In this document: positions 6,681 to 33,311 of the stretch, in pieces
How positions within the stretch are numbered: position 1 is the first letter of the stretch
Layout: each line of letters opens with the position of its first letter
From: Microthyrium microscopicum
Lineage: Eukaryota
Assembly: GCA_010405405.1 (NCBI GenBank)
Contig: MU004230.1
Coordinates: 4,296,282-4,360,281 of the forward strand
DNA length: 64,000 nt
Reading direction: 5' to 3'
The notes under the pieces: generated by a model
Told to the model about the DNA's origin: nothing
The model's input: the letters and a program-made list of their open reading frames with translations, nothing else
Databases searched by the model: none
Translations under genes and position numbers: made by a program

Positions 6681-7219
6681 CATTTAGAAACTTTAGGGGC
6701 TTAGTAGTAAGTTTTCGAATAAATAATTCGGTACTACTTAGTTAGCCCTAATATAAGCAATAGTATATTGAGAAGGATACGAACTTATATTAATCTACGT
6801 GTAAGTATTAAATATATACCGCCTATATAGTAGATAGCTCGCATCGTAAGATATTAGTTTAATATATTAGTATTTACTATTAAAGATTATAGTATTAAGT
6901 TCTTACTAGTTAATTATATGTCCGTTCCGTCTAGTTATTGGAATCTGCCGATAGTTAGCTATAATCCTAAGAACCCTTAGTTTTATAGTTAGCTTTTATA
7001 TTCACCTTCCTCTCGTCCCCCTTTTATACTACCTCTCTTATTAAACGTTTTTAACAACATATTCGCCTACTGTCTTTATACTAATATGTAATAGTTTAGT
7101 ATTAGCATATATACCTTAAAGTTATCTACTATTATATTTTATACTTACGAAGCTAGTCCCTCCTCTCCTTCTGTATAGGCTTTACCTTCCTTTATATTAT
7201 TAGTTAATCTGTTGTACTA

Positions 7220-8620: not shown

Positions 8621-8956
8621 CTAGAAACTAGATTTCGGATAATAACTTTATTTACAAGGAGTTAGTATATACTAGTAAATATGTAGCTAGGATGACCTAC
8701 CTTTCGTTTCTATTCTGTATACTAAAATATTAGACAGATATATTTAATAAGCTTTTTAATGTAATAAAACAGAAAAAATAAAAGATAACACAATATAATG
8801 CTTAGCTAGTCTGTTAGGCAGTTAATTAGATTAAGTTGGACTTATATAAAACTAGATAGGTAGGCATAAGATAAGTAGAGAAATAGGTCAACAAATAGTA
8901 CTAATCGACAAAGTAGAACAAAATAGCTAAGTAGTAACTTGACGCTAGAGCTTAGC

Positions 8957-13280: not shown

Positions 13281-13346
13281 ACTGCTCTAATAATAGTAGA
13301 AGCGCAATATTATAGAATTAGTTCTTAGTAGTTATAGTAAGGATGC

Positions 13347-13424
13347 GGATAATAAAAGTGGATAATAAAAGTAGATAATAAAAGTAGATAAAGGAAGTAG
13401 AGGATAAAAGTAGATAATAGTAAA
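13347..13424. repeat. 13-bp tandem repeat (~6 copies) between divergent transposon ORFs
   Basis: RGATAATAAAAGT units, degenerating towards the right. Confidence 0.8.
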
Positions 13425-13861
13425 GAGAAATGCGGAGGGGTTTTAAGGCAAAGTATGAGATAAAGTTAGAGAAAAAATTTAAGTTTAGGTAGTAAATAAT
13501 TATTTAGAAGGAGCAATTACTATTAAAGTAGTACTAAAGCGCCCCTCTTGCTATTTGACAAATTTAAGGTAGTGTTTTTAGCCTTTTATAGCCTTATTAT
13601 AGTCTAAGCGCAGCCTCGCGATACCCTAAATGGTAGTAGGGAGTTAGAAAAAGAGAAGGCACGACAAAGACATTAGCAGGCGCGGCTAGAAGGCCAGAGT
13701 TACGCGACGCGACCTCAAAAAGCTATTATTAAATTATATATATATATACTCTAGTTCAATTGTTTCCTTCAAGCTGATCTATAACTAGACTCTTATATCG
13801 ATTAATTGCCTCTAAGCAAGTAAATATACAGTCAAGCTGTTGTTCTTGCAAACATTAAATA

Positions 13862-15720
13862 ATGCCAACCCCTCCGTCTTCTTCGCCGTAGCCTTCTCTT
13901 ACGTAGTTAAGTAGCTCGTTTAGCGAGATTATTAATCTAGATCATCCTAACTATATCTATATATATACTAACTCCGATTAGTTCCACGATATACTGCTAG
14001 GTGTAGCAATTAAGATTTATAATTGCCTAACGCTAAGCTAAATATAATAGTAAACTAAACAGATTATGCCGCAACCAAGGCTTGAAGCTATAAAGGACTT
14101 CGCGATGTAGTGGTAGCTAGATACTATGTCCATTTTGCTAGCCATAGCTCGTAAATTAGAATAGTATATAATAGCGATAGCGCATAACGACGAGCAATTA
14201 TTAAAGTAAAGAAGCAGCTAGTTTACAATCCAATTTAATATCATTACTTAGTAGATTAATTAATACGTATTAAACTATTTAGTGCCTATCTAATTGCCCC
14301 TGCTTAAAGCTAAGAATAATAATATAGGCTACTAATTATACTAGCGTTGGTAATGTTCTTAACGCCGATTTAGTTGACGTAGAGCCCTTAGCGAACCTAC
14401 TGTTATATCCTTAGTAGTGTGAGCCTTCTTACTATTCCCGCCTAAAGTAGTATTATTTAATATCGTAGTAAGCGGCTGGCGTTAAGAAGCCCTAAAGCTT
14501 TATACTTATAGTCTTATAATATAAGGCTAACAAGCAATGCATATATAGTCCGACTATACCTCTAGACTCTGCAAAGGCGATTTAGGTAGCTTAAAAGTTA
14601 GTTATCTTAATAAGGTATAAGTAGAAACTATATAATATATTAGCAAAGAATAACGTAGCCTATAAATATAATATCTGCTTACGAAATGTTAATACTATAT
14701 TATCTTATAGTCGCTTGTGACTCTATTATGGTATTATAAGACTCTTAGTACATAGATCCTAGATACTAATGCTAACTAGTACTTAGGAATAACTAATTAT
14801 GTTAGTATATAAAGGAATCCTATTAGGAGGATATATAGTAAGCATAAGCTAAGCGATTAGTAGTAGCCTAGGGTATAGCATAACTTGCTAGTTGACAATT
14901 AGTAAGTAGATCTATAGGTTAAAGATGACGAAGTATTATGAAGTTTACGCGATTATATAGTCTTATATCCTATAGTAATAAACGCTATAAAGAATTCTGA
15001 GTAAGAAACAAGGCGTAAAGGGACTCTAAGGGAATAAGAAACTCTAAACGATGCTGCTAAAAGTAATATAAGAATAATTATATAAAAATAGTATAATAAT
15101 AATATAGGAATAATGGTATAAAGAAAGTACAAATAGTATAAGAATAAAATAATAATAATATAAGAAACACTATATAAATATGCTTCGTAAAAATATACTC
15201 TAAGTAAAAACTCTATAAAACTCTATAAGACTTTATGCTAATAAATACTAAATAAAAATACTAACTATTAAGATTAAACTCTACCTCGACGAGGCGCTTA
15301 GCGACGCTCTTAAGGGTAGCGACTAGCTTCTTAGAGGTAGAAGCCGACGTAATTACTATAAGCTAGAAGAAATCTTCCGAGCAAAGAAGGTTGAAAATTT
15401 CTTTTCGATACGCTAGAATATCTTAGTAGTCTAATATTACGTCCTTAGACGTATTTACTAAAGCTAAATTTGCTTTAATAGACTCTTTTTTAGCCGTGAG
15501 CTTGGCTTAGCGCTAACGTACTGCTAGAATACCTAGCTAGATAAACTGTTCTATAATAGTATTAGTATATATGTATAATCTAGAGCAATAGTTATAATAT
15601 ACCTAAGTACTAAGCTTTTCTAAGCTTAGAGGACTTTTCTAAGTCTAAGTACTCTTTTATAAAGTTGAAGAGCTATAAAAAGGACGTAAAAGAGTAGTCT
15701 AACTAAAGTTAAGTTTTAAT
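13862..15720 (+). pseudogene. RIPed second large ORF of the CACTA element (divergent from transposase)
   Basis: ATG at 13862 (MPTPPSSSP*PS...) and long protein-like stretches (NYTSVGNVLNAD; GRSRRNYYKLEEIFRAKKVENFFSIR) broken by RIP-type TAA/TAG stops. End approximate. Confidence 0.5.
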
Positions 15721-15852
15721 AGCATTGTCAGACAAACTAAGATCTTACAAAACTATACGATCTTTTATATAGCTCGCGATATAAGTCTACTTTATATTAG
15801 TATATAGTCTTATAATCCTAATCGTATGATTAAAGTAGTAATTTAATAATTG

Positions 15853-15965
15853 TTACGTATATATATATATCTATTTATTTAATAAGAAATTTAATAACTA
15901 ATTACATAGACTGTTAGATAGATTGTTGAATATATTATTAAATAAATAGATATATATATACGTAA
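15853..15965. repeat. Short inverted repeat/hairpin inside the CACTA element
   Basis: TTACG(TA)nTCTATTTATTTAATAA at 15853-15885 and its reverse complement at 15935-15965. The arms differ by one TA unit. Confidence 0.75.
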
Positions 15966-16129
15966 TAAGTATTAAAATAAATAAAACTTTGGAATAGTAT
16001 ATAACTTACGTAAAAGTTAGAGATAGTACGACTCTTAAAATTCCGTATATTTCTAAGATATAAATTATACGCACGCACGCGAGCTAGTCCCTACACACTA
16101 TACTCTAAAGTAGGCTAGAGCTCTTCTAC

Positions 16130-17081
16130 AACCTATTCTATAAACTAGTTACTGTAAAAAATAAAGGAATAGAAGCGCTTAGCTTGCCTTAAAGCTACCT
16201 CCTTCTTAGTCGCACGAGACGTAGAGTTAACCTTTAGTACCTTAGAGGCCTCTCTAGTTAACCCTAAAGACTAATTGTCCTAAGTGACTTTTAAGAGCTT
16301 AGCGGTAATGGTTTAGGCTATGGCGGCCGCTTTCTTAGTAGTAAAAGTAGTAGTAGTAGTAATAGTAGTAAGCGCTTTATTATTTAGTATAGTAGTAGTA
16401 GCTTTAGTAGCCTCTTTAGTGGCTTTTTAAGCAGTAGTAGCAGTAGACTCTAAATCTTTATACGCGATATCGTTACGCTTACGCTTCTCCGTTACTCTAA
16501 GGGCGCTAGTTATACCTATAGCAAGGGATTTATGAAGCTTAGCTTTGTTTTTCTACTCTACTAGTTAGTACGGCTTATTAATATTAATTAGGTATAATAA
16601 AATTAAAAAGAAGATTTAGTAGAAAGTGATATATTAATTAAGAAGAACATAAACTTAGTACACATGCCTAGTAGTAAATCTTAGTAGTAATGCTAATTAC
16701 TATAAGGCTATACTTAGAGATAATAGATAGACTAGAAGCATCGTATGTAATAAGTATAGATCTTCTTGCTATATTACATACCGATTCTAAAATACAAAGT
16801 GCTTAAAATAATAAGCTATAAATATATAATTATAGAATTGGATATAATTAGACGAAGAAGAAAAGGATAAACAATCTAGTATTTAGAAAGAACTATATAC
16901 TTATAATAGCTAAGAGCGACGCGGCTATATACGGATTACGCGTATAGGAGGAGGAAAGGGTAGTAGCCTAGAGGATGGTAGGCACTGTGTTGGTAGAAGA
17001 GGGCAGGTTATTAGTAGAAAGAGTAGGTTAGCTATTCTGGCTATTCTGGCTACTAAGGGCGGTAAGCTTAGTAGACGACAT
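16130..17081 (-). pseudogene. RIPed ORF relic (Ser/Thr-rich N-terminus, possible Cys cluster, Ala/Lys-rich C-terminus)
   Basis: ATG at 17081 (MSSTKLTALSSQNSQNS*P...), intron-like gaps, then KNKAKLHKSLA...EKRKRND...KKAAAIA. The ACT runs are likely RIPed GCT codons. Confidence 0.5.
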
Positions 17082-18042
17082 AATAAGTAAAATTAAATTT
17101 TTTAAAGTTACAAAATTCAATTTGACGTGGCCTAAGATTTTGAGGTAAAGTCGTGATCGTATCTTAAGGTAGAAAGGTAGACGCGAGACTGACGCTAAGC
17201 CTCCTAATTAAATCGCACTAACCTAAAACGCCCTAAATATACTAAAATTGCTAGGACGCTTTATTTATAGGACGCTTTAATAAGTAAGCATCCTATTATA
17301 GTATTAATAGTAAACGTTAATATTTTATACAGATATGCTATAAATCGTATAGCGAAGATATATTTATACGTTGAACGTCTCAAGTTTGAATTATCTTAGT
17401 ATAATATAATATCTGTACGTCTCTATTATAAACCGTTCCTTTTAACTATTATATTACTACGCTTTCTTATTTAAACCGTACTGAGATAATAGTTTGCTTA
17501 TACTGCTTATAGCGCTAAGACGTCCCTCGCGCTAATTATCTCAATACGGGTTCTATAATAAACTATAAATACGGTCTACGTCCTAAATTCGTTACTATTC
17601 TTTATTTTAACCGTACTAATACGCTAGTGAACTTAAAGCCGTCCTAGGACGATTTAAAATGCCCCCGATATCCGCTAGTGCTTGCTGTGCTGGCCATTGC
17701 CCTCAAAATATTGATTAAACACCCATCAAAGACCACTACTCCTCCAGCAGTGCCCTCAACTCCCTGTATTTACTCGACCTAATTTCGGAACCGAACTACA
17801 AGTCTACAACAACACAAACAGCTGCCAGCGCCTCTTTATATAGGGGGTTACTGTTGCTTTGTTCTGGTTGCGCCTTTCGCTCGAGGCTGAGCGAGAGCCC
17901 TTTTCTCTCCCTTCCTTTCCTCTAAATATTACGTACTACCCGCCAGGTAAGAACGCCATCCCCTTGCTTCGTTGTTCCTCCCATCGTGTATGCGGAATGT
18001 GCTGTCGCCAGTCACGCATGCTAACCAATGCTCGGTTCCAGA

Positions 18043-21000
18043 ATGTCCGCTCAATCCTCACCACAACGTCGCGCCGACGCTCATACTCCCCGGCATCGAC
18101 TGCAAGACGAAGAATCACACGGCTACTATTCCTCCCCAGTATCGATTGCAAATTCCCCACAAACATTTGCTACAGACCATACCCGTAATACATCCACAAA
18201 CTCTCCTTCCCGCTACGACGAGCGACATAATCTAATGCCGGTCGGAGGCGAGCTCGGCCGCAAGAAAAGTCTTGTTCGGCACGATCGTCGCCCTCAACAC
18301 GATTCGAATCAACGCGATTATCATTATCGCCAACATGCACAGGGTAGAGATGTACACCCAAGTTCGACGGGGGTGGATCCCACAGCCGACGACGAGACGA
18401 TTACCTCAAGTCCCCCTTTACGAGAAAAAGGCTACGTGGATCGACGCGGATCGAAACTTCAGCGAAATCCGACAGTAACTACAAAGCGTAAGGCGCAAGA
18501 GCTACAACGGAGGCGAGAACGTGCTGCTGTCGTACCTTTGAGCCCGTGGGTTGCCTATTGCAGAATCGTCACGTTCTGGTGTCCTGATGTATTACTGCGC
18601 TGCTTTGGCATGCCAGCGAAACCACAACAACGCGCTTGGCGAGAAAAGATGGGACTTATAAGTCTTATTGTTTTCGTCTGCGCATTTGTTGGTTATCTCA
18701 CATTTGGCTTTACACAAACCGTCTGTCCACCAGGAGCTTCTCAGCGGCTACAAACAAATCATGTTGGTGGTGGATACATGATTTTCCAAGGTCAAGCTTA
18801 TAATCTGGCTGGCTCGCATCATCCTCTCGCTAGAGGCGTTCAAGATGGCGCTAATGTGGTCTATGATCTTCCTTATGGCGGATACGATGGCAGCTTTCTG
18901 TTCCAACAAGTAAATGGTGCTTGCAAGGGCCTCATTACGAAACAATCAACTTCAAGTCAGCCTGCTGATGCCAATGGAGACCTAGCTTGGTACTTCCCTT
19001 GCGTTCTGGTCAAGCAGGATGGTTCTTCGAAAGCGAATTTCACCACTCCTCTCTATAATGGGTTCCAATGCCATACTTCCAAGGACGCTCGACAAACATT
19101 TTACAACTTGGATAGCTTTGGTGATGTCTATTTCACCTGGGCTGATGTACGGAACACTTCCCGCAATTTGATGGTGTATGGAAGTGATGTTGTCGATCTC
19201 AATTATTTGACCTGGTTCAACACCACCGACGTTGCATATCCGAAGGAGTTTGATGAGATAAGAACCAACAGCGCCCTTCGCGGCAAAGACGTTACTGCCG
19301 CCTTTACCACGACACGGGAACGCCAAATCGGAAAATGTCTTACTCAAATTGCCCGTGTAGGGTCTGTAGACACTGCTACTATTGGTTGCATTGCCTCCAA
19401 AGTTGTCCTTTACGTCTCCTTGGTTTTCATTCTTGCCATTGTTATGAGCAAGTTTTTCCTTGCCCTTGCATATCAATGGTTCATATCACCTAGATATGGA
19501 GCAGCCAAAACTCAATATGGAAAACAGAGCAAGAAGGACCGCGCACAACAGATTGAAGAGTGGTCGGACGATATCTACAGAGCTGCTCCCCCCAAGATTC
19601 AGGATCCAGCTGCCGTTGGAAGTGACCGTGGCAGCAAACGTGGAAGTGTCTTGTTCCCTCGCACTTCTCGATTCACATCACCATACCAGATTGATCAGTC
19701 ATTTTCCAAAGGCAGACATGGACCTACAACCATGGCAAATCAGAGCACCAACTCTCGCGTTACCAGTCAAATGTATCAGAGTGGAGGAAACGGAAGCGCA
19801 AACCGAAGTCAAGCTACTCTAGACAAAGGTCGACCATCCACAATGATTGAGAGTAGAGCAAGCGTAATGGTTACTGGAATGGACGAAGAAGGCCCAGCTG
19901 GCTTTATCCACGACAAGGTTGTTCCTCAACCACCACCAGAGTTTCAACCATTCGGCTATCCACTTGTTCACGCAATCTGCTTGGTTACCGCCTATTCTGA
20001 AGGATACGAAGGTGTTCGCACAACTCTCGATTCTGTTGCTCGCACGGAATATCCCAACAGTCATAAGATTATCCTCATTATTTGTGATGGTATTGTTAAA
20101 GGTGCTGGTGAAAAGTTCAGTACCCCTGAAATCTGTCTATCGATGATGAAGGACAATATCACACCAGTGGACCATGTTCAAGCATATTCATATGTTGCAG
20201 TCGCCAGTGGCTCTAAACGACACAACATGGCAAAGATTCATTCCGGTTTCTACGACTACGGCGAGGACTCGCGCATCCCACTTGAAGATCAGAAGCGTGT
20301 TCCAATGATGATTATTGAGAAATGTGGTACTGAGGACGAGGCAAGATCTGGAAAACCTGGAAATCGTGGCAAGCGTGATAGTCAAATCATCCTCATGTCT
20401 TTCTTGCAAAAGGTCATGTTCGACGAACGAATGACCGAACTCGAATTCGAAATGTTTAACGGTATCTGGAAGGTTACTGGAATATCGCCAGACTTTTACG
20501 AAGTATGCCTTATGGTTGACGCCGATACCAAAGTCTTCCCGGATTCCTTGACGCATATGATATCTGCAATGGTCAAGGATCCTGAAATCATGGGTCTCTG
20601 TGGTGAAACCAAGATCGCCAACAAACGTGGAAGCTGGGTCACGATGATTCAAGTCTTTGAGTACTTCATCTCTCATCATCTCTCCAAATCTTTCGAATCT
20701 GTCTTTGGTGGTGTTACCTGCTTACCTGGATGTTTCTGCATGTACCGAATCAAAGCCCCCAAGGGCGCGCAAAACTACTGGGTTCCTATTCTCGCCAATC
20801 CGGATGTGGTCGAACACTACTCGGAAAATGTCGTTGATACGCTGCACAAGAAGAACTTGCTACTTCTAGGAGAGGATCGTTACCTATCCACGCTTATGCT
20901 CAAGACCTTCCCCAAGCGGAAACAAATCTTTGTTCCCCAAGCAGTCTGCAAAACGACCGTTCCAGAACAATTTCGCGTGCTTCTATCACAACGCCGTCGC

Positions 21001-21617
21001 TGGATCAACAGTACCGTTCACAACCTCATGGAGCTCGTGCTCGTACGAGATCTCTGCGGCACCTTCTGCTTCAGTATGCAGTTTGTAGTCTTTATAGAGT
21101 TGGTTGGCACACTTGTCCTTCCAGCAGCCATCACCTTCACTGTCTACCTCATCGTCATTGCAATACTTTCCGCAATACAGCATACACCAGCTCCGATTAT
21201 CCCACTGGTGCTCTTAGCGCTCATTCTAGGTCTCCCAGCCGTTCTCATCGTCGTCACCGCACACCGCTGGTCCTATGTCGGCTGGATGTTGATCTACCTG
21301 CTATCTCTACCAGTATGGAATTTTATCCTACCTACCTACGCCTACTGGAAATTCGACGACTTCTCATGGGGTGAGACGCGCAAAACGCAGGCGGAGAAGA
21401 CGAAGCAGGGCGGTTATGAATATGAAGGAGAATTCGACAGCAGCAAGATCACCATGAAGCGCTGGCATGATTTCGAAAAGGGTAAGTTCCACCATCATCC
21501 TCCAACCACATAACACCATCTAACAAAAAAATAGAACGCCGAATGAATCAATCAACCGGCTGGTCTCAAGCTCAAACCTCAATGGTCAACTGGCCACCCC
21601 ATGGCTACGAGCAGTGA
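18043..21617 (+). CDS. chs4: Chitin synthase, class IV (yeast Chs3 / Neurospora CHS-4 type)
   Basis: AWREK, cytochrome-b5-like region, [43 protein letters not shown] and DDFSWG motifs; no myosin motor. 5'-UTR intron 17947-18041 and last intron 21482-21534. Confidence 0.95.
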
Positions 21618-22328: not shown

Positions 22329-25128
22329 TCAGGTATAATAACGATCTGGTAGTGGAAGTCGGACTGTGAATGATGTGAAACAACAGTGTCCATCTACTTG
22401 TCCATTTTGAGCTTCCAGGTCGTCGTTGGGTAATGTGATGGTATTGTTTTGGCTGGTTTTTGGCGGAGTGTTTGGGGAGGTTGTGGTGTTTGGTGGTATT
22501 GTAATTGTCAGTTCGTCGGGGGTGCTGTTAGGTTGACTCGCGTGGCTTTCTGGAGGAATTGTAGTCTCCTCGGGTGCAGTGCTTGGTTCTGGGATTTCGT
22601 CATTGTTCTGAGAGAGTTGATTTGGTCTTTCACAGATTTGCTCTTGTCTTGCATCTGGTGAAGTTGGGCGTATATCTTGCGTTCCTGACTCGTTATTGAG
22701 CTCGTTATTGTTGTGTTCCGATAATGTACTTTCTACAATTTGGATCAAAGTATCGTTCGACACAGATTCCGTGTCCTCGTGGGAAACGTCCGGGCCGTCG
22801 TGCGAAGTAGTGCCTGCAAGATCATGCAATGTACTGGCAGAATCACCTTGTAAGACACTACCACTGTCAATTCCACCCGACGATTGCGATTGTGCCTGGT
22901 TGTCGTGTTCGTGGACGTCAATTACTCCCCACTGTACAGGTTGATAAGCAGCGCCTGTATCATCTGCAGGTCTATGGCATGCGGCGCTTATGACAGCACT
23001 GCACGTAGCTCCAAGAGGCATGTAGCCCGGATGTTTCTTGAAACCTATCAAGAACACAGTGCCAACAGTGATGAAGCTCAAGACGACAGTGAGAATGAGC
23101 GCTATACCACTCGTCTGCAGAAATGGATCTCCATCCTCAAAACTGTTCAATCGATAAGTTTCAATAACTTCCAGCGATAACCCTTGTGACAACATCCAAT
23201 GACAAGCAAAGAACAGTATCTGTATCGGAACTCCATAACGGTACGGAATTGCAAGAAAATACGTAGAACGCTGTTTTCCTGTAGGAAAGGATACCCGTAG
23301 AGGTTTCTTTTTAGTGGCATAGCTCTGCCATTCTGCTTCGACGAAAATGTAGCTGAGCAGTGAGTTCAGCAGGATGTATACGCCTGACAAAATCAACTGC
23401 CAGACATTGGCAAAGAAGATGATGGCGTAAAGAGCGGGTGTTCGAGAACCGGTTTGCAAGTTGAGTTGCAGTTCGGCGAATCCTTTATCGTCGATTTTGC
23501 CGAAGCCCATTTTTGTAAAGTGGCCAGTGGAACCAGCGCGTGATGAGACTACTTTTTGATTTGAAACGATCAAGCCGATAGCAGCGACAATGAGGCAGAT
23601 GTATAAAGAATATGTCACAAGCCAACGGCGAAACGAGGCTGCTCGGAAATATAGCTTGGGACGCGCGCTCCATGGTCGAAAGGCTTGGGAAGACCATACT
23701 GATCGAGTGGACTGGATTGTCTTCTTGTCGAGTAAGGAAAGGCTCTTGGTTTCATCGTCGACATCTGTGAGAAATGAAGCCAAAGCATCGCCCAATACCG
23801 TAATCGGTTCTCTCTTCCCTTGGACTTTTGCATACCTCATGGCGGTATAAAGTATCACGGTGCATTTGCAGAAGTTTGCGACGCAAACAGCAATCATTAT
23901 CTGTGGGGAGAATCTGACTGCGCACTTGTTGTCAAGATTGATTTCGCGTATGAAGCATCGATCGACTCGCCATCCAAGTATGTTCCAGTCCTTGATGATG
24001 GAAGGGTCCTTTTCCCATGCAGACTGATCTCCACCTGAAGACAGTATTAGTTCATAAAATGTTCAAACAGAAAATTGAGCAAACTTAAAGTCAAAGCTGT
24101 GGGTCGAGCCACAAAGCCATTGGTAATCGTTCCAGAAGTCAAACACCATTTCGATATGAAGCCATTTTACGAACAGAAGAGGGTTCGTAGCATTGGACAC
24201 GGAAGTTTCAAGCCCGGAAAGGTAGTCATAACTAGTTTGAAAGATGACATTCGAGCTGTTGCTGAAAGGGTCGCTGTATGTGTTGAGGCATTCGAGAGCG
24301 CTAACGTTTCGGACAAAAACTCCAGATGTATACTGGTCTGTCAAGTTGCCGCATTTGTTATCCCCACATCGGTCTGCATTGTATCCATACTCATATGCAT
24401 CAATCGGCTGAGAGACGAGCTTCTTATGAACAGCTGGTGATACTTCTAGTCCTGTCATGTTTTGGCGTGCTCTCCAGTCCCAAGCGACTACCGATTTACC
24501 TACATTCATCTGCTGGCCTTCGAAGAACCCGGGAGTTACAACGTAAAAAGCGTGCTGGTTAGCTGGATTTGTGTTGTAAACAGCTGAATTGTAACTACAA
24601 GATGATTTATTAGAAGAGCATATATCAGAATTAAGTTATACATACAGCAAATGTAGCGGAACTGCAGTGAAAGCAAGTAGAAGCCATGCCAATTTGCGAC
24701 CATAATCAACATGCCAGAAGTTTCTGATACTAGGAAAGCCAATATCAAGCCAGCGCTGCTTTTTGTGAGCTTTATCAATCTCTGCTCTAGTGGGGGCCAG
24801 CAGCATTTGCATGCAAAGGTTGGATACTGAAAGTAGAATTGTAGATAGAGCATTGATGACTATGTGCACGATACTGTTTATGCGATTTGCCGCTGAACAG
24901 CTCCCCAAAGTAGATAGGGGGATCAGCGAAGTAGAGCGAGGTCGAAGGTTTCTGTGAAGCAGTGTATTTGATCTGGGAGAAGGTAATGGTCGCGATGAGA
25001 TTTGCCAGAAATATGAGAATCGAAATCACGCAACATGCATATAGCAGGGTCTTACGCTTCACGTCCATGAGCTGCGAAAGGAAAGACGTGAGCTGAAATA
25101 GGGAACTCATATTGCAACCAGTACCCAT
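22329..25128 (-). pseudogene. DUF6536-like fungal multi-TM membrane protein, apparently disrupted
   Basis: Family motifs HIVINALSTILL..SNLCMQ.L.APTR.EIDKAH...WLDIG, VPLHLLYNS, LGDALASFL, LRVS.P.G.QRSTYFL.IPYRY and CSAVISAACH. +1 frameshift at 24903-24906, and the intron at 24035-24088 begins TTAAGT. 5' end unresolved. Confidence 0.7.
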
Positions 25129-26025
25129 TCCTCCCCCTAAGAGTCATGTCAAAAGATGTGAAGAATTTAAGAATAAGGAAGAGGAAGAGAAGATGCGGCC
25201 TCCGGGACATTTTGACAAGAATATATTCATGCAAGTTGTAAACCAGTTATCGCATCAGGCTGAGGCTCATTCTGCACCTGCAGCGCACAGCCTCCTCGAG
25301 CTCGATACTCGGCGTAGTAGATGCAGATCGAGGCTTCATCGCCTTCTCCTCGTTCTTTTCACGGACCGGCTATCCTTTGATGGATTTTCACGCTCCTTAT
25401 GGCCGCCACGCGATGTTTTGTTGACCGGGCAGACTCGTGATGGCATTGGTGTTGATGTTGAGTGTTGCGTTAGTCTTGATGGGGACTAGCACCTTCCCCT
25501 GAGCTCCCTGCCTCCTTACCTTGCGTCTTCCTCTTTTTCCTTCTTTCTTTTAGTTCGTAGGTCATTGAATTCTATTGAAGCGTGAATTGGCTCAATTACG
25601 TCCCCACACTGCCGACTGATGTCTAATCGCGAAGTCCATCGCACTGCTGCTTGTTGGTAGAGTATCTCTTAAGGGATATCCAAGACTCGACGTCTGTCAC
25701 ACTGTCACTCTCCACTGTTCTCCAACCACTTCAAAATGATCCTTATTACTCTGGAATACAAAGAAAGCCCCCATTATTGATAAGAAATTTCGATAAGGTT
25801 GGAGGTGAACATGCAAGTCTGTAGGCTAATGTTTTGAGCTTGATAGATTTGTAATGGACATATCCAGCGGCATCGGTAAGACGTAATATTCGTATATTTG
25901 TCGTTATACAACGACATCCAGGAACCATGAAATCAGTCATTTGTACGCGTATAATGGCCTACAAATGATCGACGAGGTAGCTCAATCAATTTCCAAGAAT
26001 ACATCCAAGTTGAGCAATTTCCAAA

Positions 26026-27210
26026 ATGCCAGTCGAATTCATCAGCCTTACGCCTCCCAATGCGTCAACCGAATTGAAGCCACTTTCGGGCGCAGGTGTA
26101 GATGTAGACTTTCTTGTCCGTTACTCCAAGACGCTCGATGACTATGGGTTCAATTACACTCTCATTCCATATGGATCATCTGGATTCGATCCATGGACTA
26201 TTGGCGCAACCGTTGCAGCACATACTAAGAACATCAAAGTCATTATCGCACTCCGACCAAACACCTTATATCCAACTGTCGCGGCAAAGGCTCTCGCCAC
26301 TCTTGATCAGCTTAGTAAAGGAAGAGTTGTCGTCCACTTTATCGCTGGAGGCAGTGATGCCGAGCAAGCCAAGGAAGGCGACTTCTTGACCAAGGAACAG
26401 CGATACGCAAGACTTGAGGACTACATCAAGATCCTTCGTCGTGCCTGGAAGTCAGCGGATCCGTTTGATTGGGAGAGTGAGCATTACAAGTTCAAGCAAT
26501 TCAGTAACTCGGTCCGTCCAACCAAAGGCACCATTCCCGTCTCGGTCGGCGGATCATCTGACGACGCATACCGCATCGGTGGCTCTCTAGCGGACATTTT
26601 CGGCCTCTGGGGAGAACCACTGAAAGAAACGAAGGAGCAAATCGATCGAGTCTACGCTGAGGCCAAGAAAGCCGGCCGAGCTGATAATGACCGTCCACGA
26701 ATTTGGGTCACTTTCCGACCCATCATTGCTGAAACCGACGAGCTCGCCTGGGCTAAAGCACACCGCCACCTCGCCACGTTGAAAGCAAACAGTGGTGCCT
26801 CAGCAGCCAATGGAGACAGCAAGAAGCCAAACGGAGACGCAAAGCCGGTCAACGGTAAACGCAAGGCAAATGGAGAGCCATCTTCTGCCCCAGGGCCGCA
26901 AAACGTTGGCTCTCAGAGACTACTAGAAATTGCTTCTCGAGGCGACGTACATGATCGAGCGCTTTGGTATCCGACTGTGACTGCGACCGGTGCTCGTGGT
27001 GCATCCACCGCGCTCGTTGGCTCGCCGAATACACTTGCAGACTCGATTCTGGATTATGTGGACTTGGGAGCTGACTTGATCTCGATTCGTGGGTACGATA
27101 ATTTCAATGATGCGGTAGATTATGGCCGATATATCTTGCCGAGGGTTCGGGAGGAATTGGCGGAACGTGAAGAACCTTCTCCTAAGCGTTCGAAGCGGTC
27201 CAAGGCATGA
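26026..27210 (+). CDS. Luciferase-like (LLM class) flavin-dependent monooxygenase, SsuD/alkanesulfonate monooxygenase-like
   Basis: Intronless 394-aa ORF with IALRP..YPTVAAKALATLDQLSKGR, VGGSSDDAYR, FGLWGEP and STALVGSP motifs of bacterial LLM oxidoreductases. Confidence 0.9.
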   Translation: MPVEFISLTPPNASTELKPLSGAGVDVDFLVRYSKTLDDYGFNYTLIPYGSSGFDPWTIGATVAAHTKNIKVIIALRPNTLYPTVAAKALATLDQLSKGRVVVHFIAGGSDAEQAKEGDFLTKEQRYARLEDYIKILRRAWKSADPFDWESEHYKFKQFSNSVRPTKGTIPVSVGGSSDDAYRIGGSLADIFGLWGEPLKETKEQIDRVYAEAKKAGRADNDRPRIWVTFRPIIAETDELAWAKAHRHLATLKANSGASAANGDSKKPNGDAKPVNGKRKANGEPSSAPGPQNVGSQRLLEIASRGDVHDRALWYPTVTATGARGASTALVGSPNTLADSILDYVDLGADLISIRGYDNFNDAVDYGRYILPRVREELAEREEPSPKRSKRSKA

Positions 27211-27733
27211 TCGTGATAGGTAAATTGATGTTGGGTGGTTTATGTCTGCTCTTTAAATGGTACGGAAATCTGAAGAATCGCATTCTTGAAATAGCTGCAC
27301 TGAGATTTACTAAATGTCCATGTACTTAATCAGACAATTCATTTGGACTTTGAGGATATCATAAAGCTTGTTATTCAATTGTCGCTGTAAAGTTAACCAC
27401 ATGCATGAAAGTCCTGTGCAGAATTCAAAACCTTCAAATCCTCAGGAAAAATATGCTAAGCTGTGATAGACAATGATGATTATCTACACAGAACTCGAGT
27501 CTTGGAGGGCGTACAGAACGTTGCGAGGTAGGCCTATTTCCGAAAGCACGCCATTTTGAACTGAGAGGAATGTCCCTTGAAATCAAGGTTGATTACTTAT
27601 TCACAGACTCGATGACACAAAGCATTTTGGGTCGTCTTAATTTTATGTCCATAAAAAAGTGAGATTTTACATTTGATTATTTTAGTAAATCTCCTGGCAA
27701 GAGTAGCCGGAAGGTGTGATATCACCACCCACA

Positions 27734-30352
27734 ATGAGGCTGCTATCAAGCACTGAACGAAGCAACCTTGCGGGCAACTACTTTGCACCAGAAGGTCTCT
27801 ATGAACACATTAAAGGCCTTCCATTTCTAGGGACGTTGGCTTGCGAAACAAAGATTCTGACTGCAGGCCAATGGACGGAAATCATAATCACGTATACTGT
27901 GGGAGGAAGTGGTCTGGCAGATGGAGCCTGGATTAAAGGTACCTTCAAGTTTTATTCGGTATGTCTATCCTCACTTCTAAAATTCGTGAGAGACTAGGAT
28001 GAAGAGAGGCCTGTTTATTGAGCGACGGTGATCCTGCTTCAGGCTGCCACAAAATAGAAAGAGAACTATACCTTGAAGTTACTTGCTAAGACACACAGGA
28101 TTGGGCATTATTCCAAACATCAGATCCAGCATCTGACAACTACGTCTCCGCCGAATATGAAGCCAACACACTACTTCCTGGCCAAACACCGGCAACAGTA
28201 CAAGGATTAGCTGTGAGATTCGACCAGAAAGGACACGAGAGGCCTTACCAAAAGGCCATCATCATCGACATAGTGGATGGCTACCTCAATCCTGGAGACA
28301 AGATCATCGTCAGACTTGGAGATAGACGTCATGGCGCACGAGGGACTCGCGTACAAACATTTGTCGAAGAGGACTTTCGAATGAGGTGGTATATCGATCC
28401 AGTTGGCACATCTCGGTTTGCGCCAATCAAACCAGATCTAATCTTCAATATACAGAGTGGAGCGATTTCGAAGCTTAAGGTTATCAGTCCGAGATTGGTG
28501 CGACCCGATACGGATTTTCCTCTTCATGTACATACAGAGGATGTGTGGGGAAATGCGACTACAAACCAGGAAGATTTGCAGGCACATATTCGTGTTGTAC
28601 ACAAAGAGTCTGAGCAGAGAGTCGTAGATTCGACCATATCATTGAACTCTGATGGATGGACGTACGGATCTTTGAAGCTCTTTTTAAAGAGACAGGGACA
28701 ACATTTGATTAGTGTTTCAGTGATTGACTTGTCAGGGAACACCATCATTGCTCGAGACGAATTCATCAGTGTCAAGGCGGATTTAGTAGTGCCTAGATTA
28801 TTGTACGCCGACCTGCACGTCCACTCTGATGATACTGTGGGGACCAACTCGACTACGTACAACTTCTCGTACGCGCAAAAGATTGCTGGAATGGATATCG
28901 TCGGGTATACAGCGAATGACTTCAACATCACCAAAGAACGATGGGAGCAGACTGTTGAAATCATCAAGAGGACGAACCAGCCTGGCGAGCTTGTGATTTT
29001 TCCAGGTACCGAGTGGTGTGGTAATTCGGCAGCTGGTGGAGACCATAACGTCGTTTTTCTGGACGATTTGGAGACTTCGAAGATAGAGTTTCCTATCGAT
29101 CGCAACGGCAATGTCGCGCGCAGCTTCGAGTGGAATGAGGACGGACCTGCGGAACTGCTTCCTGGGGTACCAAGTCCATTCAATATTGCTGTGATTTACT
29201 AATAATTCATAGGCATGGCCTCTCGACGAAGTATACGCAACCTACGCCCACGCTCCATCCTCCCACCTAATGATCCCGCACGTCGGCGGCCGTCGATGTA
29301 ACCTATCATGGCACCACCCACAACTAGAACGACTTCTCGAGATCGGTAGCGCCTGGGGCCATTTCGAATGGTTACTCAAAGACGCAGTATCTCGAGGTTG
29401 GAAAATGGGCGTATGCGCCAACTCTGATGAGCATCGTGGCCGATGTGGAGGCGGTGTGCCTGGGACGGCCGTCTTTGGGACCAAGGGTGGATTGACTGGT
29501 GTGTTGGCACCTTCGCTGAACCGGAAGAGTGTCGCTGAGGCGTTGAGAAGTCGGCGTACGTTTGCTACGACTGGGGAGCGCTTGGCAGGTCTGTTATATA
29601 CTGATGATGGGGCAGTGCAAGGTGATGATATACGGTTGAAGGTTGGTCAGAGTGTGAAGCTGAATTATTTGGTTTGTGGGGGAAGTGGATTCTCGTCAGT
29701 CGAGGCTTGGGACGGAAATGGCATCATGTGGCAACGAGATCTAATCGCTGAGACAGAAACTTCGTCTCAGGTCAAGAAATTGATTGTCACCTGGGGAGGA
29801 GCTCGACTTTTGGACCGCTATCGAGAAGCGGTTTGGGATGGCATCATCTCTATCGAGGGAGATGGTTGTACAATCAAAGATGTGCAGCCTTTTGGCGGTG
29901 TCGTCGACGTGCCAGAGGAAAAGGTTGCCCTTCAGTCTGATACCAGGATAGTCTTTCAGACGCGAACAAGCGGTGACTTTGATGGAGCGTTGATTTCATT
30001 CGACGACAGTCAGAAGTTGCCAGCGAAGATACTGATAGAAGGCCGATTGAGTGGTTACGTGAAGGTAGGGGACGCCCTCAAGCCTAATTCGCATAAAGCA
30101 GAACCTATTTTTGTCCTGGAGGCCACGATCGACGAGTTACAGAGTCACGGCGGGAAGACCATTGAGTTGGCCGGAGGTGCCGACCTGCATGTCAATGCGA
30201 AGCTATCCAGCGTAAATGATCTTCCCACAGAAGTCCAAGGCCACTTTTCTGCTGCCGTACTAGAAGGAAAGAAAGCTCGAAGTGTATACATGGTCGCGCG
30301 CGAATGGGACGGAGGAAAAGTTATTACAAGTCCGGTGTTCCTGGAAGTATGA
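27734..30352 (+). CDS. ~810-aa bacterial-type PHP-fold metallohydrolase (DUF3604 / CehA-McbA-like)
   Basis: Exons 27734-27958, 28099-29166 and 29213-30352 join in frame via canonical introns. Metal-ligand motifs ADLHVHSDD, TANDF, PGTEW, GDHNV, IPHVGGR, EIGSAWGHFEW, ANSDEHRGR, LRSRRTFATTG and C-terminal TSPVF. Confidence 0.75.
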
Positions 30353-33311
30353 CTCTAGTGCTATGGCGCAACATTGTGCTTAGCGCATAAGTCTTGATAT
30401 AGATTTCAAACGCGGTCTAGAGATCGCGATATATCTCTAAAGTCGCCGATCTTTCATAGCAGACAGTGGTCATTTCGAAAGTGACAGCTCCGTGACTGGC
30501 GCCCTCGTTCATCACTGCTGCTTGGCTCTTCATATCTGTTTGACAAGATCGTCACTGACCATGTAGGTCTCGAACAGTTTTTGCACGAAGCCTTTCTAGT
30601 GTGTATGGCATTCTTCTGGTGCGGAGCGTTGCTGTTGCATCGAAAACGATAAGCCCGCACGAAGAGATCTATAATTGGACTACCCGTAGAGATTCCGTTC
30701 CCGTGTTAGGTGACTTGGTACACTCGTATAGGAGGAATTTTCGAGTGGTGAAAATCAACTGGTTGGAAAAACAACGAGCGACCTTACCGGGACATATCGA
30801 AAGGTTTTCGTCTCCGCGCGGGAGCCGCTGATCGGTCTTCCATGGAAGCTGGCAACGTGTGTAACATGACGTGCATGACAGGAAGCGAGGCGGATTGGAT
30901 GGCATGCCGCGTCTGCAGGCGTACCTGATCCCGTTCTTGTACTTAAGTGACACGTCAAATGCTGCTTTGGGAGAGGTGCGGCTGGGGTAAGTTGGTCGTG
31001 GACGAGTACGTTTGGTGTATGAATACTTTGCAGTATTTGCTTTAGGTAAAGACGAGTTCTAGATAGCCTTCGCCTTGGACGCAATGGTGGTTGTCTCTGA
31101 GAGTTTGGTCAACTTTTGGCTTGTTTGTGAGCGTGGCTGGGCTGAATCTGGCTCGTCGGGTTGTACAATATACGAGTCTGTAATACAAAGCCGTCTCCAT
31201 GAGGTTCAAGCGAGTTTGTTGCCGCTGCCAAGTGCCGTGAACTTATTGCCTTCTTTGGCCACTTTCTGCTTCAAGCACTCATCAATGGGGGATGCGTGCA
31301 TGGTGAAGTGACTAGTCACATCGATAGAGGCGAGGGAAGTGCCGTTGTCACCGATTGTCTCTTTTCTCTGCCTTTCTCTCGTCCTATAGATCGACTGTCG
31401 ACATATCATTTGGTGCCTCACCAGTTGTATGGCTAATCAGAGTCGGTGGGCACATGTCGCTTCTTGAGGCTGTAGACCCCGGCGTTTCGTTCATGCCGTG
31501 CAGCCGATGCCAAACAGAGTGAATTCCTGGTTCGTGGGGAGAATATGCAGTGGACAAAATAATTGGCAATCTCTATCAACTACGATTACTGCTCAGTTGC
31601 CATCGACAGCTCTATTGGGTGCTATACTTCCATCGATTGTGATGCTGTTAGCTCAACTCATTGACCGCCGAATGAGATATAGTATGGTCTGGTTTGTAAA
31701 GACATGGTGGTTGATGATAGCGTGCCATCTATTTTGTCCACCCGTTGGAAGGTTACGCTGCATTTGCTAAAACTTTGTCAGGATTTCTCTTCCCCGGCTC
31801 AAGCGAACTGGCGGACTGGGCTTTTCGCTGTTGGCCGTCCCGGAAACGTTTCTGGGTTCTCTTGTTATTGCCAGGTCTTGACCTGTCAATTTTGCTTGTA
31901 TTCTCTTCTGGAGAGCTTGGGCAGCCATTTTGGGTGTGATCTCCTAGAGTACGCATTTCTCTTCAGCGTCTTCACGCAATTGACTGGACCGCTACTTGAT
32001 TTAGTAAGTAGCCATCTCAATCCTGACTCTGGTAGAACTCACCATTCGGCTCAATACTCCAAAAAAGTAGCTGTTGGCCAAAGGCATCGCGGCTTCGAGG
32101 ACGAGAATATCAACTTATCATTGGACCCCATTGCTCCACTAACCACGGCCCTTCCCGGCGCACCTCTCCACGCGACGCATCGCAGGTTTAATGTTGCAAC
32201 TTTCCAGCCATCCACTTCCGACGTTGACAGCTTAATTCTAGCAAGGGAGTAGTGGCAAGCAGTTCAACTGCAAATACTCCGCATATTGTGGACCCTCTCT
32301 GCCGCTGGGGGCCTGACGCGATAATTATCGCATTATCGCGCACAATACTGGTCAAGCGATTGGAATCATTGGAAACCGAGAGTGACCTGGGGGGTTGCTA
32401 TATGCATGCCTGTCCGATGCCTGGTCCTGCAGCGGGGTGTGAATCGGAAAGACGGGTTGCAGTGGCTGACCTGTTGCTTGCTGCTTGTCACCGAAGACGC
32501 TGCTCTTGCTGATTGCTGCTGCTGTTCCTTAGCCTTTGCGTGGTCGCTGTGCAGTGTGTGGTGGTGTTGGTTTTGACTTTTGTTTTTCTGCTTCTGGACG
32601 AGGAGACCATCCAGAATCCATCCCATTTTCTCTCTCTCCCCACACTCTTTTCCCTGGCCGCTTCGACCATCGCCCTGTGCGGCATTTCAATCACTTCCAA
32701 GGTTCGCTCACCGCTTTTCTCAACCGAGCACATCTGTCGATTACGGGATCCGAAGCTGTCAATTCTTGGCCTGTTTGGGTGGGTAGAGTTGCCCAGAGTG
32801 TCAGCCCCCCATACGTTAAATTGTGGAGAGAGTGTTGAACCACAGTTGCGCACTCTTACCTTCAGTGCTACATTAACTCTCTCTTATACGTCTGCATCTG
32901 ACCGAATTGACTGTTTCCCCGCCCATCTGGACTCGTTGAGCTGTGCTGCGTCAGGGTGACTGCAGACGCTGTCTACTACCCAACTTCATGTGATGCGATT
33001 AAGGACTCGATCTTTGCTTTGCATCAGAATAATACTGAACGCTCGCGGCTTGACTCACCAGCTCCATTTTTGGAAGTTCCTGGACATCTTGACGAAATCG
33101 AAAACCTCTTCACAGTTGCCACTAATTGACTTGTCAAATTCGATTGTCAATACACTCCCCGTGGCAGGCTAGTCGTGATTGCCTCCCCCTCACCATCCTG
33201 GTCACTCCCACCCTTTACTACTTCTAAACCTTGCCGATGCTCTTTTGAGCACTTCCTGTTCTTCCTCATGGTTTGACTACAACCCACTCTCATTTTTTCT
33301 ACTGCCACAAC

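Follow-up and report, generated by a model that had tools for sequence, protein, structure and literature searches.

A luciferase-like monooxygenase gene and a PHP-fold hydrolase gene of very probably bacterial origin look like lineage-specific neighbours in Microthyrium microscopicum

SsuD of Escherichia coli and MsuD of Pseudomonas fluorescens are FMNH2-dependent alkanesulfonate monooxygenases and belong to the group C two-component flavoenzymes. In Pseudomonas, sulfate esters are taken up by the importer AtsRBC and then hydrolysed in the cytoplasm by AtsA, a formylglycine sulfatase whose fold is unrelated to PHP. According to two papers (PMC5857272; PMC4267179), most soil sulfur is organic, in the form of sulfonates and sulfate esters, and few of the enzymes with which fungi release it have been characterised. 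The first, a 2018 review, describes fungal enzymes of the SsuD/MsuD type as lacking biochemical characterisation (PMC5857272). Sulfur starvation induces mox-7 of Neurospora crassa, as given in PMC8550094, and SOX1 and SOX2 of Candida albicans, as given in a preprint (bioRxiv 10.1101/2025.05.12.653471); these genes are likened to gene A, described below, at the level of class and not as established orthologues.

Gene A and gene B are located in a 64,000-nucleotide stretch of DNA (the window) from Microthyrium microscopicum (Dothideomycetes). The features are as follows.

26026..27210, + strand: gene A, intronless coding sequence for 394 amino acids, SsuD/MsuD-like luciferase-like monooxygenase (open reading frame and stored protein)
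27211..27733, no strand: spacer of 523 bp between the co-oriented genes A and B
27734..27958, + strand: gene B exon 1, residues 1-75
27959..28098, + strand: gene B intron 1, 140 nt, GT...AG
28099..29166, + strand: gene B exon 2, residues 76-431
29167..29212, + strand: gene B intron 2, 46 nt, GT...AG, with a branch-like site ACTAAT
29213..30352, + strand: gene B exon 3 including the stop codon, residues 432-810
28792..29584, + strand: PHP-fold catalytic core, residues 307-555, with intron 2 inside (coordinates from the exon map)

The gene models agree with what had originally been predicted, namely two co-oriented genes about 520 bp apart, an intronless monooxygenase, a hydrolase with two spliceosomal introns and no signal peptide in either protein. 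The translation of gene A is the same as the stored protein P0121 without any difference, and the product of gene B (27734-30352), spliced from three exons, is identical in every letter to the public 810-residue annotation P0001, listed as a Microthyrium microscopicum hypothetical protein. Intron 1 of gene B reads GTATGT...CAG with CTAAG close to its 3' end, and intron 2 reads GTACCA...TAG; moreover, a metagenome homologue (P0003) starts immediately past intron 1. The two N-terminal beta-sandwich domains start in exon 1 and lie mostly in exon 2. The PHP core is split, its first half (DLHVHS, E380, GGDH) being encoded by exon 2 and its second (PHVGGR, SDEH) by exon 3, where the beta domains of the C-terminus follow. 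There is no hydrophobic signal-like stretch at either N-terminus, the maximal Kyte-Doolittle means over 10 residues being 1.3 and 1.5 within the first 40 residues. No tRNA and no Rfam family was found within 24000-33000, and the spacer has no exact match to the CYS-3/MetR-type motif. The further neighbours of A and B in the window (chitin synthase, DUF6536, WD40, aminotransferase, Vta1) are housekeeping genes with no relation to them, and an MFS gene is found at 777-2412, at a distance of 25 kb from gene B.

Gene A scores 235.5 bits with Bac_luciferase of Pfam (PF00296; cut-off 27.9), over residues 15-350 of the protein and positions 9-313 of the 314 in the profile; its assignment to the LLM flavin monooxygenases is therefore upheld. 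Like SsuD and MsuD, it belongs to the LLM TIM-barrel family, and it is about 40% identical to the solved structures of both across residues 24-250, that is, in the N-terminal 230 residues. Its top NCBIfam matches are SsuD models, but it reaches only about one third of the equivalog and subfamily cut-offs (TIGR03565, 175.4 against 518.2 bits; NF001939, 178 against 510 bits). The sulfonate-binding motif of MsuD consists of W195, R225 and R296 in the RGGA loop (PMC8234197, section 7). In a HMMER alignment read by eye, which is not a structural comparison, the motif Trp and the loop Arg align with W195 and R324 of gene A, both invariant in six fungal sequences, whereas the essential R225 corresponds to T229, and an Arg follows two residues on (R231, opposite H227 of MsuD). 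In the same alignment, the loop of gene A reads ARGAST, keeping the Arg and being one residue shorter than that of MsuD. A further difference is a lineage-specific and variable insert of low complexity, some 20 residues long, near 258-280. Moreover, unlike SsuD and MsuD, gene A has neither a reductase gene nor an ABC transporter gene adjoining it, and no flavin-reductase family was found among the 27 ORFs scanned in the window (mostly of at least 130 residues). Because gene A scores far below the SsuD cut-offs and has a Thr at the position of R225 of MsuD, its substrate need not be an alkanesulfonate. The 119 relatives listed, out of 3550 matches, are 72-78% identical to gene A; every named one among them is fungal and many are labelled alkanesulfonate monooxygenase, while the sampled bacterial proteins are at most 43% identical. 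Judged by these matches, gene A belongs to the two-component flavin monooxygenases of the SsuD/MsuD group and is an unremarkable representative from the Pezizomycotina, presumably dependent on FMNH2. This is a common type, and the monooxygenase brings nothing new.

Gene B encodes a five-domain cytosolic protein of 810 residues with a PHP metal-hydrolase core. In its AlphaFold model (pLDDT 92.0, pTM 0.91), the core at residues 307-555 superimposes on TM0559 (2anu_A) with a Z score of 20.1 and an rmsd of 2.9 over 197 aligned residues (model residues 307-554), and also matches BVU_3505 (3e38_B, Z 20.1) and PsfC (7rty_B, Z 16.2), which confirms the PHP-like nature proposed for the hydrolase. We take the PHP metal ligands to be HxH, E, H, H and DxH. 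As putative ligands, judged from the sequence, gene B has H315-x-H317, E380, H391, H454 and D503-x-H505. Among 50 aligned family members, D313, E380, H454 and D503 are found in all 50, H315 in 49, H505 in 44 and H391 in 34. The fold of residues 307-555 (Z 12-20) is shared with the PHP phosphoesterases 2ANU, 3E38 and BAD_1165 (3O0F), RNase AM (9ETK) and the oxidative PsfC (7RTY), and the putative His/Asp/Glu ligand positions are conserved, but gene B is three times larger, with four additional beta domains. The functions of these phosphoesterases are nucleotide-related or not known, and the two nearest, TM0559 and BVU_3505, have no known substrate.

At the level of sequence, no solved structure matches gene B at E ≤ 1, and its sole Pfam match is DUF3604 (PF12228; 42.1 bits, cut-off 20.4), a weak one made of two short stretches only, the best of which joins residues 521-561 to profile positions 376-416 of 591. 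Taken singly, exons reach 22.4 and 22.5 bits. DUF3604 proper and the short forms of about 730 residues, distributed in many prokaryote phyla, have the PHP core and the flanking beta domains in common with gene B, with 25-32% identity across its residues ~40-700. However, the short forms carry DLHGQS where gene B has DLHVHS (the Q in 44 of 50 aligned), they are without about 100 C-terminal residues, and there are no conserved neighbours around them, any one neighbour being common to at most 10 of 80 loci. The closer relatives are bacterial 'long forms' of about 790-810 residues, 47-54% identical to gene B over its residues 1-808. These have the same length and the DLHVHS motif (60 of 63), and match in structure in the ESM Atlas (TM 0.88); an example is the protein encoded on a Pantoea vagans plasmid (WP_061060898.1). 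Plasmids of Klebsiella, Pantoea, Azospirillum and Rhizobium carry such homologues with 47-49% identity. On sequence grounds, gene B is a member of this long-form branch of DUF3604-like proteins.

The fungal copies of gene B form one clade with a support of 100 in both trees. In the IQ-TREE result, the sister group of this clade is bacterial long-form clade A (93), clade B falls outside the two (99) and the short forms serve as the outgroup; the nesting of the fungi within the bacteria rests on this short-form rooting, and the support of 93 for the key branch comes from a quick search. Four sequences of unknown origin diverge after the short forms and before the long-form/fungal group. In addition, the hydrolase gene is a single intronless open frame in two fungal-type contigs (L081 and L084). 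The fungal clade nested in the bacterial long forms, together with these intronless copies, suggests that gene B was very probably acquired horizontally from bacteria. An ancestor of the Pezizomycotina would have taken the long-form branch from bacteria, and some fungal lineages would have gained introns in the gene afterwards. Unlike the bacterial long forms, gene B in this genome has introns, a composition like that of its neighbours and no importer. Both proteins had been predicted to be bacterial-type and horizontally acquired; the families bear out the former for both, and the trees support the latter for the hydrolase.

The bacterial long-form genes have a consistent neighbourhood. A co-oriented transporter gene lies directly upstream in 61 of the 65 loci with at least 1 kb of upstream sequence, and these importers comprise 46 NitT/TauT (SsuA-type) ABC, 11 DASS and 4 PstS-like binding proteins. 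After collapse at 80% identity, an importer is upstream in 21 of 21 informative clusters. The order of the module, for example on the Pantoea vagans plasmid, is a GntR gene followed by the ABC ATPase, SsuA-type binding protein, permease and hydrolase genes. Such a gene would be co-transcribed behind the small-anion importer, and its position points to an enzyme that works in the cytoplasm on an anionic compound brought in from outside. The likeness to AtsRBC/AtsA is one of logic only, an ABC importer of the NitT/TauT type encoded with a cytoplasmic hydrolase. Sulfur-acquisition genes are found nearby in 14 of 74 long-form loci, several of these 14 being near-copies of one another, and include SfnB, NtaA/DmoA- or SfnG-like monooxygenases, a CysP-type sulfate-binding protein with permeases, and sulfotransferases. 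The regulator genes found most often next to the module encode GntR proteins of the HutC/PhnF-like kind and Crp-family proteins, not sulfur regulators of the CysB/Cbl/SsuR type. This suggests that substrate-induced catabolism fits as well as, or better than, scavenging under sulfur starvation. The organosulfur scavenging originally proposed therefore gains a hint from the importers and the sulfur genes. The gene directly upstream of gene B is the monooxygenase and not an importer, so gene B is not an instance of the bacterial module; it is a relative of the module's enzyme that stands alone.

No close relative of gene A was found within 10 kb of a relative of gene B in any of 160 loci, 80 from prokaryote genomes and 80 from metagenomes (74 prokaryote-type and 6 fungal-type contigs). 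Three of the 74 prokaryote-type metagenome loci have an LLM gene near the hydrolase, only 21-22% identical to gene A. Of the fungal-type contigs, four have about 2 kb or more upstream, and none of these carries the pair. Hyaloscypha variabilis and Truncatella angustata, the two other species listed for both proteins, have the listed homologues of A and B on different contigs. These two species and the four contigs make up the fungal synteny sample, and adjacency may occur in relatives of Microthyrium. Furthermore, five Pseudomonadota genomes with the best gene A matches have no match to the hydrolase. The histories of the two genes also differ, both in identity to bacteria (at most 43% for A, 47-54% for B) and in spread within the fungi. 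Genes A and B look like lineage-specific neighbours, and we consider it probable that both are real, intact and independently evolved genes brought together by chance in Microthyrium, A of the SsuD/MsuD type and B a bacterial-derived hydrolase whose bacterial relatives are linked to importers. Sulfur scavenging is a plausible theme common to both, reached via independent routes.

As for the mechanism, gene A would take FMNH2 from a separate reductase encoded elsewhere and oxygenate the carbon beside a sulfonate-like anion, with sulfite released. In the modelled cytosolic product of gene B, a PHP (beta/alpha) barrel with the putative metal ligands is preceded by two beta-sandwich domains and followed by C-terminal beta domains. 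Water activated by the metal might attack an esterified or conjugated sulfur oxyanion (or, with less likelihood, a phosphorus oxyanion), which would free sulfate, or a simple sulfonate for desulfonation by flavin monooxygenases such as gene A. Extending this, we tentatively propose, as a rather unlikely possibility when taken as a whole, that the long forms are an undescribed sulfur-releasing class (hydrolytic, or oxidative like PsfC, acting on sulfate esters or sulfonate conjugates), coupled to importers in bacteria, captured once by the Pezizomycotina and standing in Microthyrium beside an SsuD-like monooxygenase as a two-step route from conjugated organosulfur to sulfite. The hydrolase belongs to a large family of no known function that is consistently tied to anion import. 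Should it act on an ester or conjugate of organosulfur, it would represent a new enzyme class for the sulfur cycle, and also a clean case of fungi domesticating a bacterial enzyme for nutrient scavenging.

It is unlikely that the two genes, of separate origins, were joined in the Microthyrium lineage for one co-regulated pathway, in which the hydrolase frees a sulfonate and the monooxygenase desulfonates it. The tandem arrangement and the independent pointers to sulfur (the SsuD-like family of A, the importers and SfnB/LLM neighbourhoods of the relatives of B) are consistent with it, but the remaining neighbours in the window are the unrelated housekeeping genes named above, no shared regulatory motif was found, the arrangement is absent in the few other fungal loci available, and one adjacency among thousands of genes may be due to chance.

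We regard it as quite unlikely that gene B is a phosphoester or phosphonate-ester hydrolase that supplies phosphorus or carbon and has nothing to do with sulfur, its neighbour then being irrelevant. The nearest solved folds are PHP phosphoesterases (2anu, 3e38, 3o0f, RNase AM 9etk), as are most characterised PHP-fold relatives. The binding proteins also have secondary, weaker Phosphonate-bd matches (1e-13 to 1e-16), the GntR regulator scores against the PhnF/PhnR models, below their cut-offs, and a PstS-like protein is directly upstream in four loci. However, SsuA_fam is the best family for the binding proteins (TIGR01728; in locus L119, 168.2 bits against a cut-off of 163.5), and in three of the four PstS-like loci the PstS-like protein lies behind a CysP-type sulfate-binding protein (260 against 155.5 bits) and two permeases. 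Moreover, SfnB, sulfonate-type LLMs and sulfotransferases recur, and there is no Pho-regulon gene among the annotated recurrent neighbour clusters of the long-form loci.

Operons for the catabolism of nitrogenous compounds often include NitT/TauT importers and HutC-type repressors, and both occur in the long-form loci. A role of gene B as a hydrolase of carbamates, amides or N-heterocycles in xenobiotic or nitrogen catabolism is nevertheless very unlikely, since the matches to CehA_McbA_metalo (NF038032) are weak (23.3 bits for exon 3 of gene B and 32.4 for a bacterial long form, cut-off 80) and no amidase, urease-like or ring-cleavage partner recurs near the long-form genes; the likeness to CehA/McbA suggested at the outset is thus not sustained. 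The original prediction of a co-transferred and domesticated bacterial operon fragment, encoding consecutive steps of one pathway, drew on two bacterial-type, co-oriented genes 523 bp apart, and LLM monooxygenases do occur within about 4 kb of the long-form gene in four bacterial loci (L100, L112, L122 and L127), but these are NtaA/DmoA- or SfnG-like and only 21-22% identical to gene A, and the missing linkage, the unlinked fungal homologues and the differing histories described above make this reading extremely improbable. That two genes lie side by side in a fungus says little in favour of an inherited operon.

Bacteria associated with soil and plants harbour the hydrolase family, as do many ascomycetes associated with plants. 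Gene B is of a rare type of metal hydrolase.

Gene B, the second of two co-oriented genes in this stretch of the dothideomycete fungus Microthyrium microscopicum, encodes a predicted PHP-core/DUF3604-like hydrolase that fungi very probably acquired by horizontal transfer and that represents a variant of a bacterial family of uncharacterised enzymes. It is for this hydrolase family that the locus matters, and not for the pairing with gene A, which encodes an SsuD-like luciferase-like (LLM) monooxygenase. The two genes and their neighbours in the window are:

18028-21513: class IV-type chitin synthase
22329-25130, minus strand: multi-exon DUF6536 membrane protein gene (137.6 bits on one exon), divergent from gene A
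26026-27210, plus strand: gene A, one open frame of 394 aa, translation identical to protein P0121
27734-27958, 28099-29166 and 29213-30352, plus strand: exons of gene B, spliced product identical to the 810-aa protein P0001
33273-35405: WD40 protein
Elsewhere: aminotransferase, Vta1 homologue, GNAT, fungal transcription factor and others, unrelated to genes A and B

These gene models bear out the layout that had been predicted, namely two genes in the same orientation (with a spacer of 523 bp), an intronless gene A, two introns in gene B and no signal-peptide-like N-terminus seen in either protein. The introns of gene B (140 and 46 nt) have GT...AG ends and branch-like sites (CTAAG and ACTAAT), and the public 810-aa protein 'hypothetical protein BT63DRAFT_436388' is a 100% match to exon 3; the proposed splicing rests on sequence features together with the public annotation. 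The contigs of the sole public sequencing run covering the stretch (X1) are DNA-like and continuous across the introns and the spacer. One of them omits 53 bases at 28196-28248, with ends CA..AC that are not those of an intron, in a segment encoding the conserved FDQKGHERP, where the gap would disrupt the frame of gene B; the gap probably arose in the assembly of this contig set. No RNA families or tRNAs were found between or around the two genes. The upstream region 25130-26025 is common to gene A and the DUF6536 gene. GC content and third-position GC are 0.52 and 0.50 in gene A and 0.50 and 0.50 in gene B, the same as in neighbouring genes, and therefore neither gene appears to have arrived recently. 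In addition, the region 6001-17000 is AT-rich (GC 0.29-0.36, against 0.44-0.52 elsewhere) and without any ORF of at least 130 aa, and may consist of degraded, RIP-like repeats.

The AlphaFold model of the gene B protein, calculated with 50 relatives as input (pLDDT 92.0, pTM 0.91), was divided by a wider structure search into the following predicted domains:

Residues 31-196: beta sandwich, YcnI-like (Z 11.3)
Residues 197-302: Ig/filamin-like domain (Z about 10-11)
Residues 307-555: PHP barrel, matching TM0559 (2anu; Z 20.1, rmsd 2.9, 197 aligned)
Residues 570-810: additional beta domains

The barrel also matched BVU_3505 (3e38, Z 20.1), PsfC (7rty, Z 16.2), EndoQ, BAD_1165 and RNase AM. Foldseek with the whole model against the PDB gave mostly beta-sandwich matches to GH2 enzymes (TM 0.12-0.21), which were uninformative. 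Candidate metal ligands D313, E380, H454 and D503 are kept in all 50 aligned family members, H315 in 49, H505 in 44 and H391 in 34, and the arginines R458, R508 and R554 in 48-50 of the 50. The modelled barrel thus agrees with the PHP-like metallohydrolase core that had been proposed, while the comparison with CehA/McbA did not hold, with a score of 23 bits where that family model requires 80. Pfam recognised DUF3604 only, in a weak and patchy way, and no solved structure was matched by sequence at E <= 1. The literature searched gave no functional description of DUF3604, which one of the two papers that mention it calls poorly characterised, and no paper linking the PHP domain to sulfonate and ABC transporters; among the papers listed, none on sulfur starvation named histidinol phosphatase.

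An exhaustive profile-free search returned 2765 relatives of gene B at E <= 1e-3, which fall into three groups. The first consists of fungal proteins with 56-70% identity, and the named ones all belong to Pezizomycotina. The second comprises the long forms of bacteria, about 790-810 aa in length and 47-54% identical across residues 1-808, which were sampled by a metagenome scan, plasmids and a genome search. Of the 80 metagenome contigs kept, 74 carry a long form, as do 58 plasmid records (Rhizobium 19, Klebsiella 14, Azospirillum 9, Pantoea 2, and others) and 2 of the 301 Pseudomonadota genomes sampled. The third is made up of short forms of about 730 aa with 25-32% identity, present in Chloroflexota, Poribacteria, Latescibacterota, Planctomycetota, Asgard archaea and more; the prokaryote-genome scan, built on 10 short-form sequences, returned short forms only. 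The short forms in archaeal bins (L027, L037, L054, L061 and L079; Bathyarchaeota, Hodarchaeota and Heimdallarchaeota) are 36-43% identical to bacterial ones. The motif DLHVHS is common to the fungal proteins and the long forms (60 of 63 long forms), whereas the short forms have DLHGQS. Two trees were built, one with FastTree (99 rows) and one with a quick IQ-TREE search under LG+G4 (41 rows, without the metagenome fungal rows and protein P0294, and with the long forms reduced at 75% identity to 10 representatives). In both, the fungal homologues form one clade with support of 100, and in the IQ-TREE tree, with the short forms as outgroup, this clade and long-form clade A are sister groups (93), and clade B branches outside them (99). 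Moreover, the frame of the gene-B homologue is uninterrupted on two fungal-type metagenome contigs (L081 and L084). The wide prokaryotic spread, the narrow fungal clade nested among bacterial long forms and the intronless fungal copies point to one old transfer from a bacterium to a fungus, as had been predicted for gene B, a reading that depends on the rooting and on the single branch with support of 93, and to which four deep-branching sequences (P0242 and P0245-P0247) are a caveat. Within the fungi, P0001 groups in both trees with two proteins of Diaporthales (70% identity in Diaporthe amygdali, 68% in Cytospora leucostoma), and these three together are the sister group of the remaining Dothideomycetes in the sample (Elasticomyces, Zasmidium), a placement that suggests either paralogy or transfer between fungi. 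P0048 (877 aa) and P0088 (1169 aa) are longer fungal homologues and possibly merged gene models; the Truncatella model has an additional PF12708 (rhamnogalacturonase-type) domain.

Gene A is already known in kind, as one of the ordinary members of a fungal family that is known and conserved. Its product is a full-length luciferase-like monooxygenase (235.5 bits), for which the top NCBIfam models are SsuD with scores of about one third of the cut-offs, and over residues 24-250 its identity to the SsuD and MsuD crystal structures is about 40%. Among the matches listed, of 3550, the relatives are 72-78% identical, all those named are from filamentous ascomycetes, and many are labelled alkanesulfonate monooxygenase. 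Bacterial proteins were compared by identities in the 301 sampled Pseudomonadota genomes and by Atlas neighbours; 27 of these genomes had matches at E <= 1e-30, the best with 43% identity. According to one structural study, the sulfonate site of MsuD consists of W195, R225 and R296 in the RGGA loop (PMC8234197). In the sequence alignment, the tryptophan is kept in gene A as W195 and the loop arginine as R324 within ARGAST, in a loop one residue shorter, but T229 stands where MsuD has R225, and R231 follows two residues later; therefore an anionic, sulfonate-like substrate is plausible, though the enzyme need not be an SsuD. The main difference from five fungal orthologues is an insert of low complexity, about 20 residues long, in a variable loop (residues about 258-280; window 26780-26870), which is rich in Gly, Asn, Lys and Pro, lineage-specific and absent from all five; they also lack the basic C-terminal tail. 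A 2018 review treats the fungal family as predicted and uncharacterised (PMC5857272), and the class-level homologues mox-7 of N. crassa (PMC8550094) and SOX1/2 of C. albicans (bioRxiv 10.1101/2025.05.12.653471) are reported to be induced by sulfur starvation. In the 64 kb window, no other sulfur-metabolism genes or biosynthetic cluster were seen. Exact matches to ATGRYRYCAT, the CYS-3/MetR-type motif, number 2 against 1.1 expected, both within exon 3 of gene B, and those with one mismatch 24 against 25 expected, and the promoters of genes A and B show no enrichment.

The original prediction joined the two genes as a domesticated fragment of a bacterial operon for scavenging sulfur or nitrogen. 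Using tblastn, gene A gave no match at E <= 1e-5 in 80 prokaryote genome loci with gene-B relatives (flanks up to 10 kb on each side), with one 29-residue match at E <= 10, and only three matches in 80 metagenome loci (L100, L122 and L127), each 21-22% identical, which argues against an operon fragment. The six fungal-type loci among these 80 had no match; four of them (L081, L082, L084 and L088) have 1987 to 10000 bp upstream, with room for gene A at a spacing like that in the window, and there the gene-B homologue has as neighbours a GH94 enzyme, a HET protein, an MFS transporter and a beta-propeller. In Hyaloscypha variabilis and Truncatella angustata, the two other species found in both searches, the homologues of A and B are on different contigs, which is weak evidence because paralogues may exist. 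Furthermore, in the five bacterial genomes where gene A matched best, gene B gave no match, and bacterial genome G227 carries both on separate contigs. Genes A and B are thus probably not a two-gene unit: of the earlier interpretation, the horizontal acquisition of gene B stands through its nesting in the tree, and the inheritance of the pair as a unit falls for want of linked relatives.

The long forms in bacteria have a partner of another kind. Across 74 loci, an importer component is typically directly upstream of the long-form gene, co-oriented and usually 15-170 bp away. A NitT/TauT-type ABC system (ATPase, binding protein and TauC-like permease) is found in 48 loci, a DASS anion symporter in 11 and a PstS-like binding protein in 4, three of these behind a CysP-type sulfate-binding protein and two permeases; the remaining 11 have no such importer, and 7 of them have less than 1 kb of upstream sequence. 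An importer is thus present in 61 of the 65 loci having at least 1 kb upstream, and in 21 of 21 informative clusters when the hydrolases are collapsed at 80% identity. Against TIGR01728 SsuA_fam (cut-off 163.5), the binding proteins of L119, L094 and L129 scored 168.2, 155.3 and 121.8 bits. A plasmid of Pantoea vagans is annotated with this layout too (GntR / ATPase - binding protein - permease - 'hypothetical protein'), and in Azospirillum the long-form gene is accompanied by a GntR regulator alone. Large plasmids of Klebsiella pneumoniae (14 records) and plasmids of Pantoea carry the module of GntR, ABC importer and long form; L161:5581-11340 is one instance among the plasmid records, and the plasmid-borne hydrolase is annotated as a hypothetical protein throughout. 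The short-form neighbourhoods have no conserved partner, any shared neighbour occurring in at most 10 of 80 loci, from near-identical Poribacteria.

The enzyme encoded by gene B most probably acts in the cytoplasm, hydrolysing a small anionic compound that has been imported. The best-supported class of substrate, to which we would give roughly a third of the probability, is a sulfur-bearing ester or conjugate. Sulfur-acquisition genes are present in 14 of the 74 long-form loci, namely an SfnB-family oxidoreductase (L109, L112, L125, L126 and L128), NtaA/DmoA- or SfnG-like flavin monooxygenases (L100, L112, L122 and L127), a sulfate-binding protein (L133, L134 and L136) and two sulfotransferases (L154-L156); the independent lineages are nearer six, since several loci are near-copies. 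The adjacency to the SsuD-like gene A in Microthyrium is a second, independent pointer to sulfur, of little weight because it is single and not seen elsewhere. The main alternatives are a phosphorus ester and a nitrogenous compound. That the bacterial module serves sulfur-starvation scavenging is a further reading, against which stand the adjacent regulators, which are HutC/PhnF-like GntR or Crp-type and not sulfur regulators, and the PHP fold, which is known best from phosphoesterases. In L154, L155 and L156 (e.g. L155:197-8091), a sulfotransferase-like gene, an amidinotransferase/DDAH-like gene, a sulfotransferase, a DASS symporter and the long-form hydrolase lie together, and the substrate of this operon may be a sulfated guanidino or amino compound.
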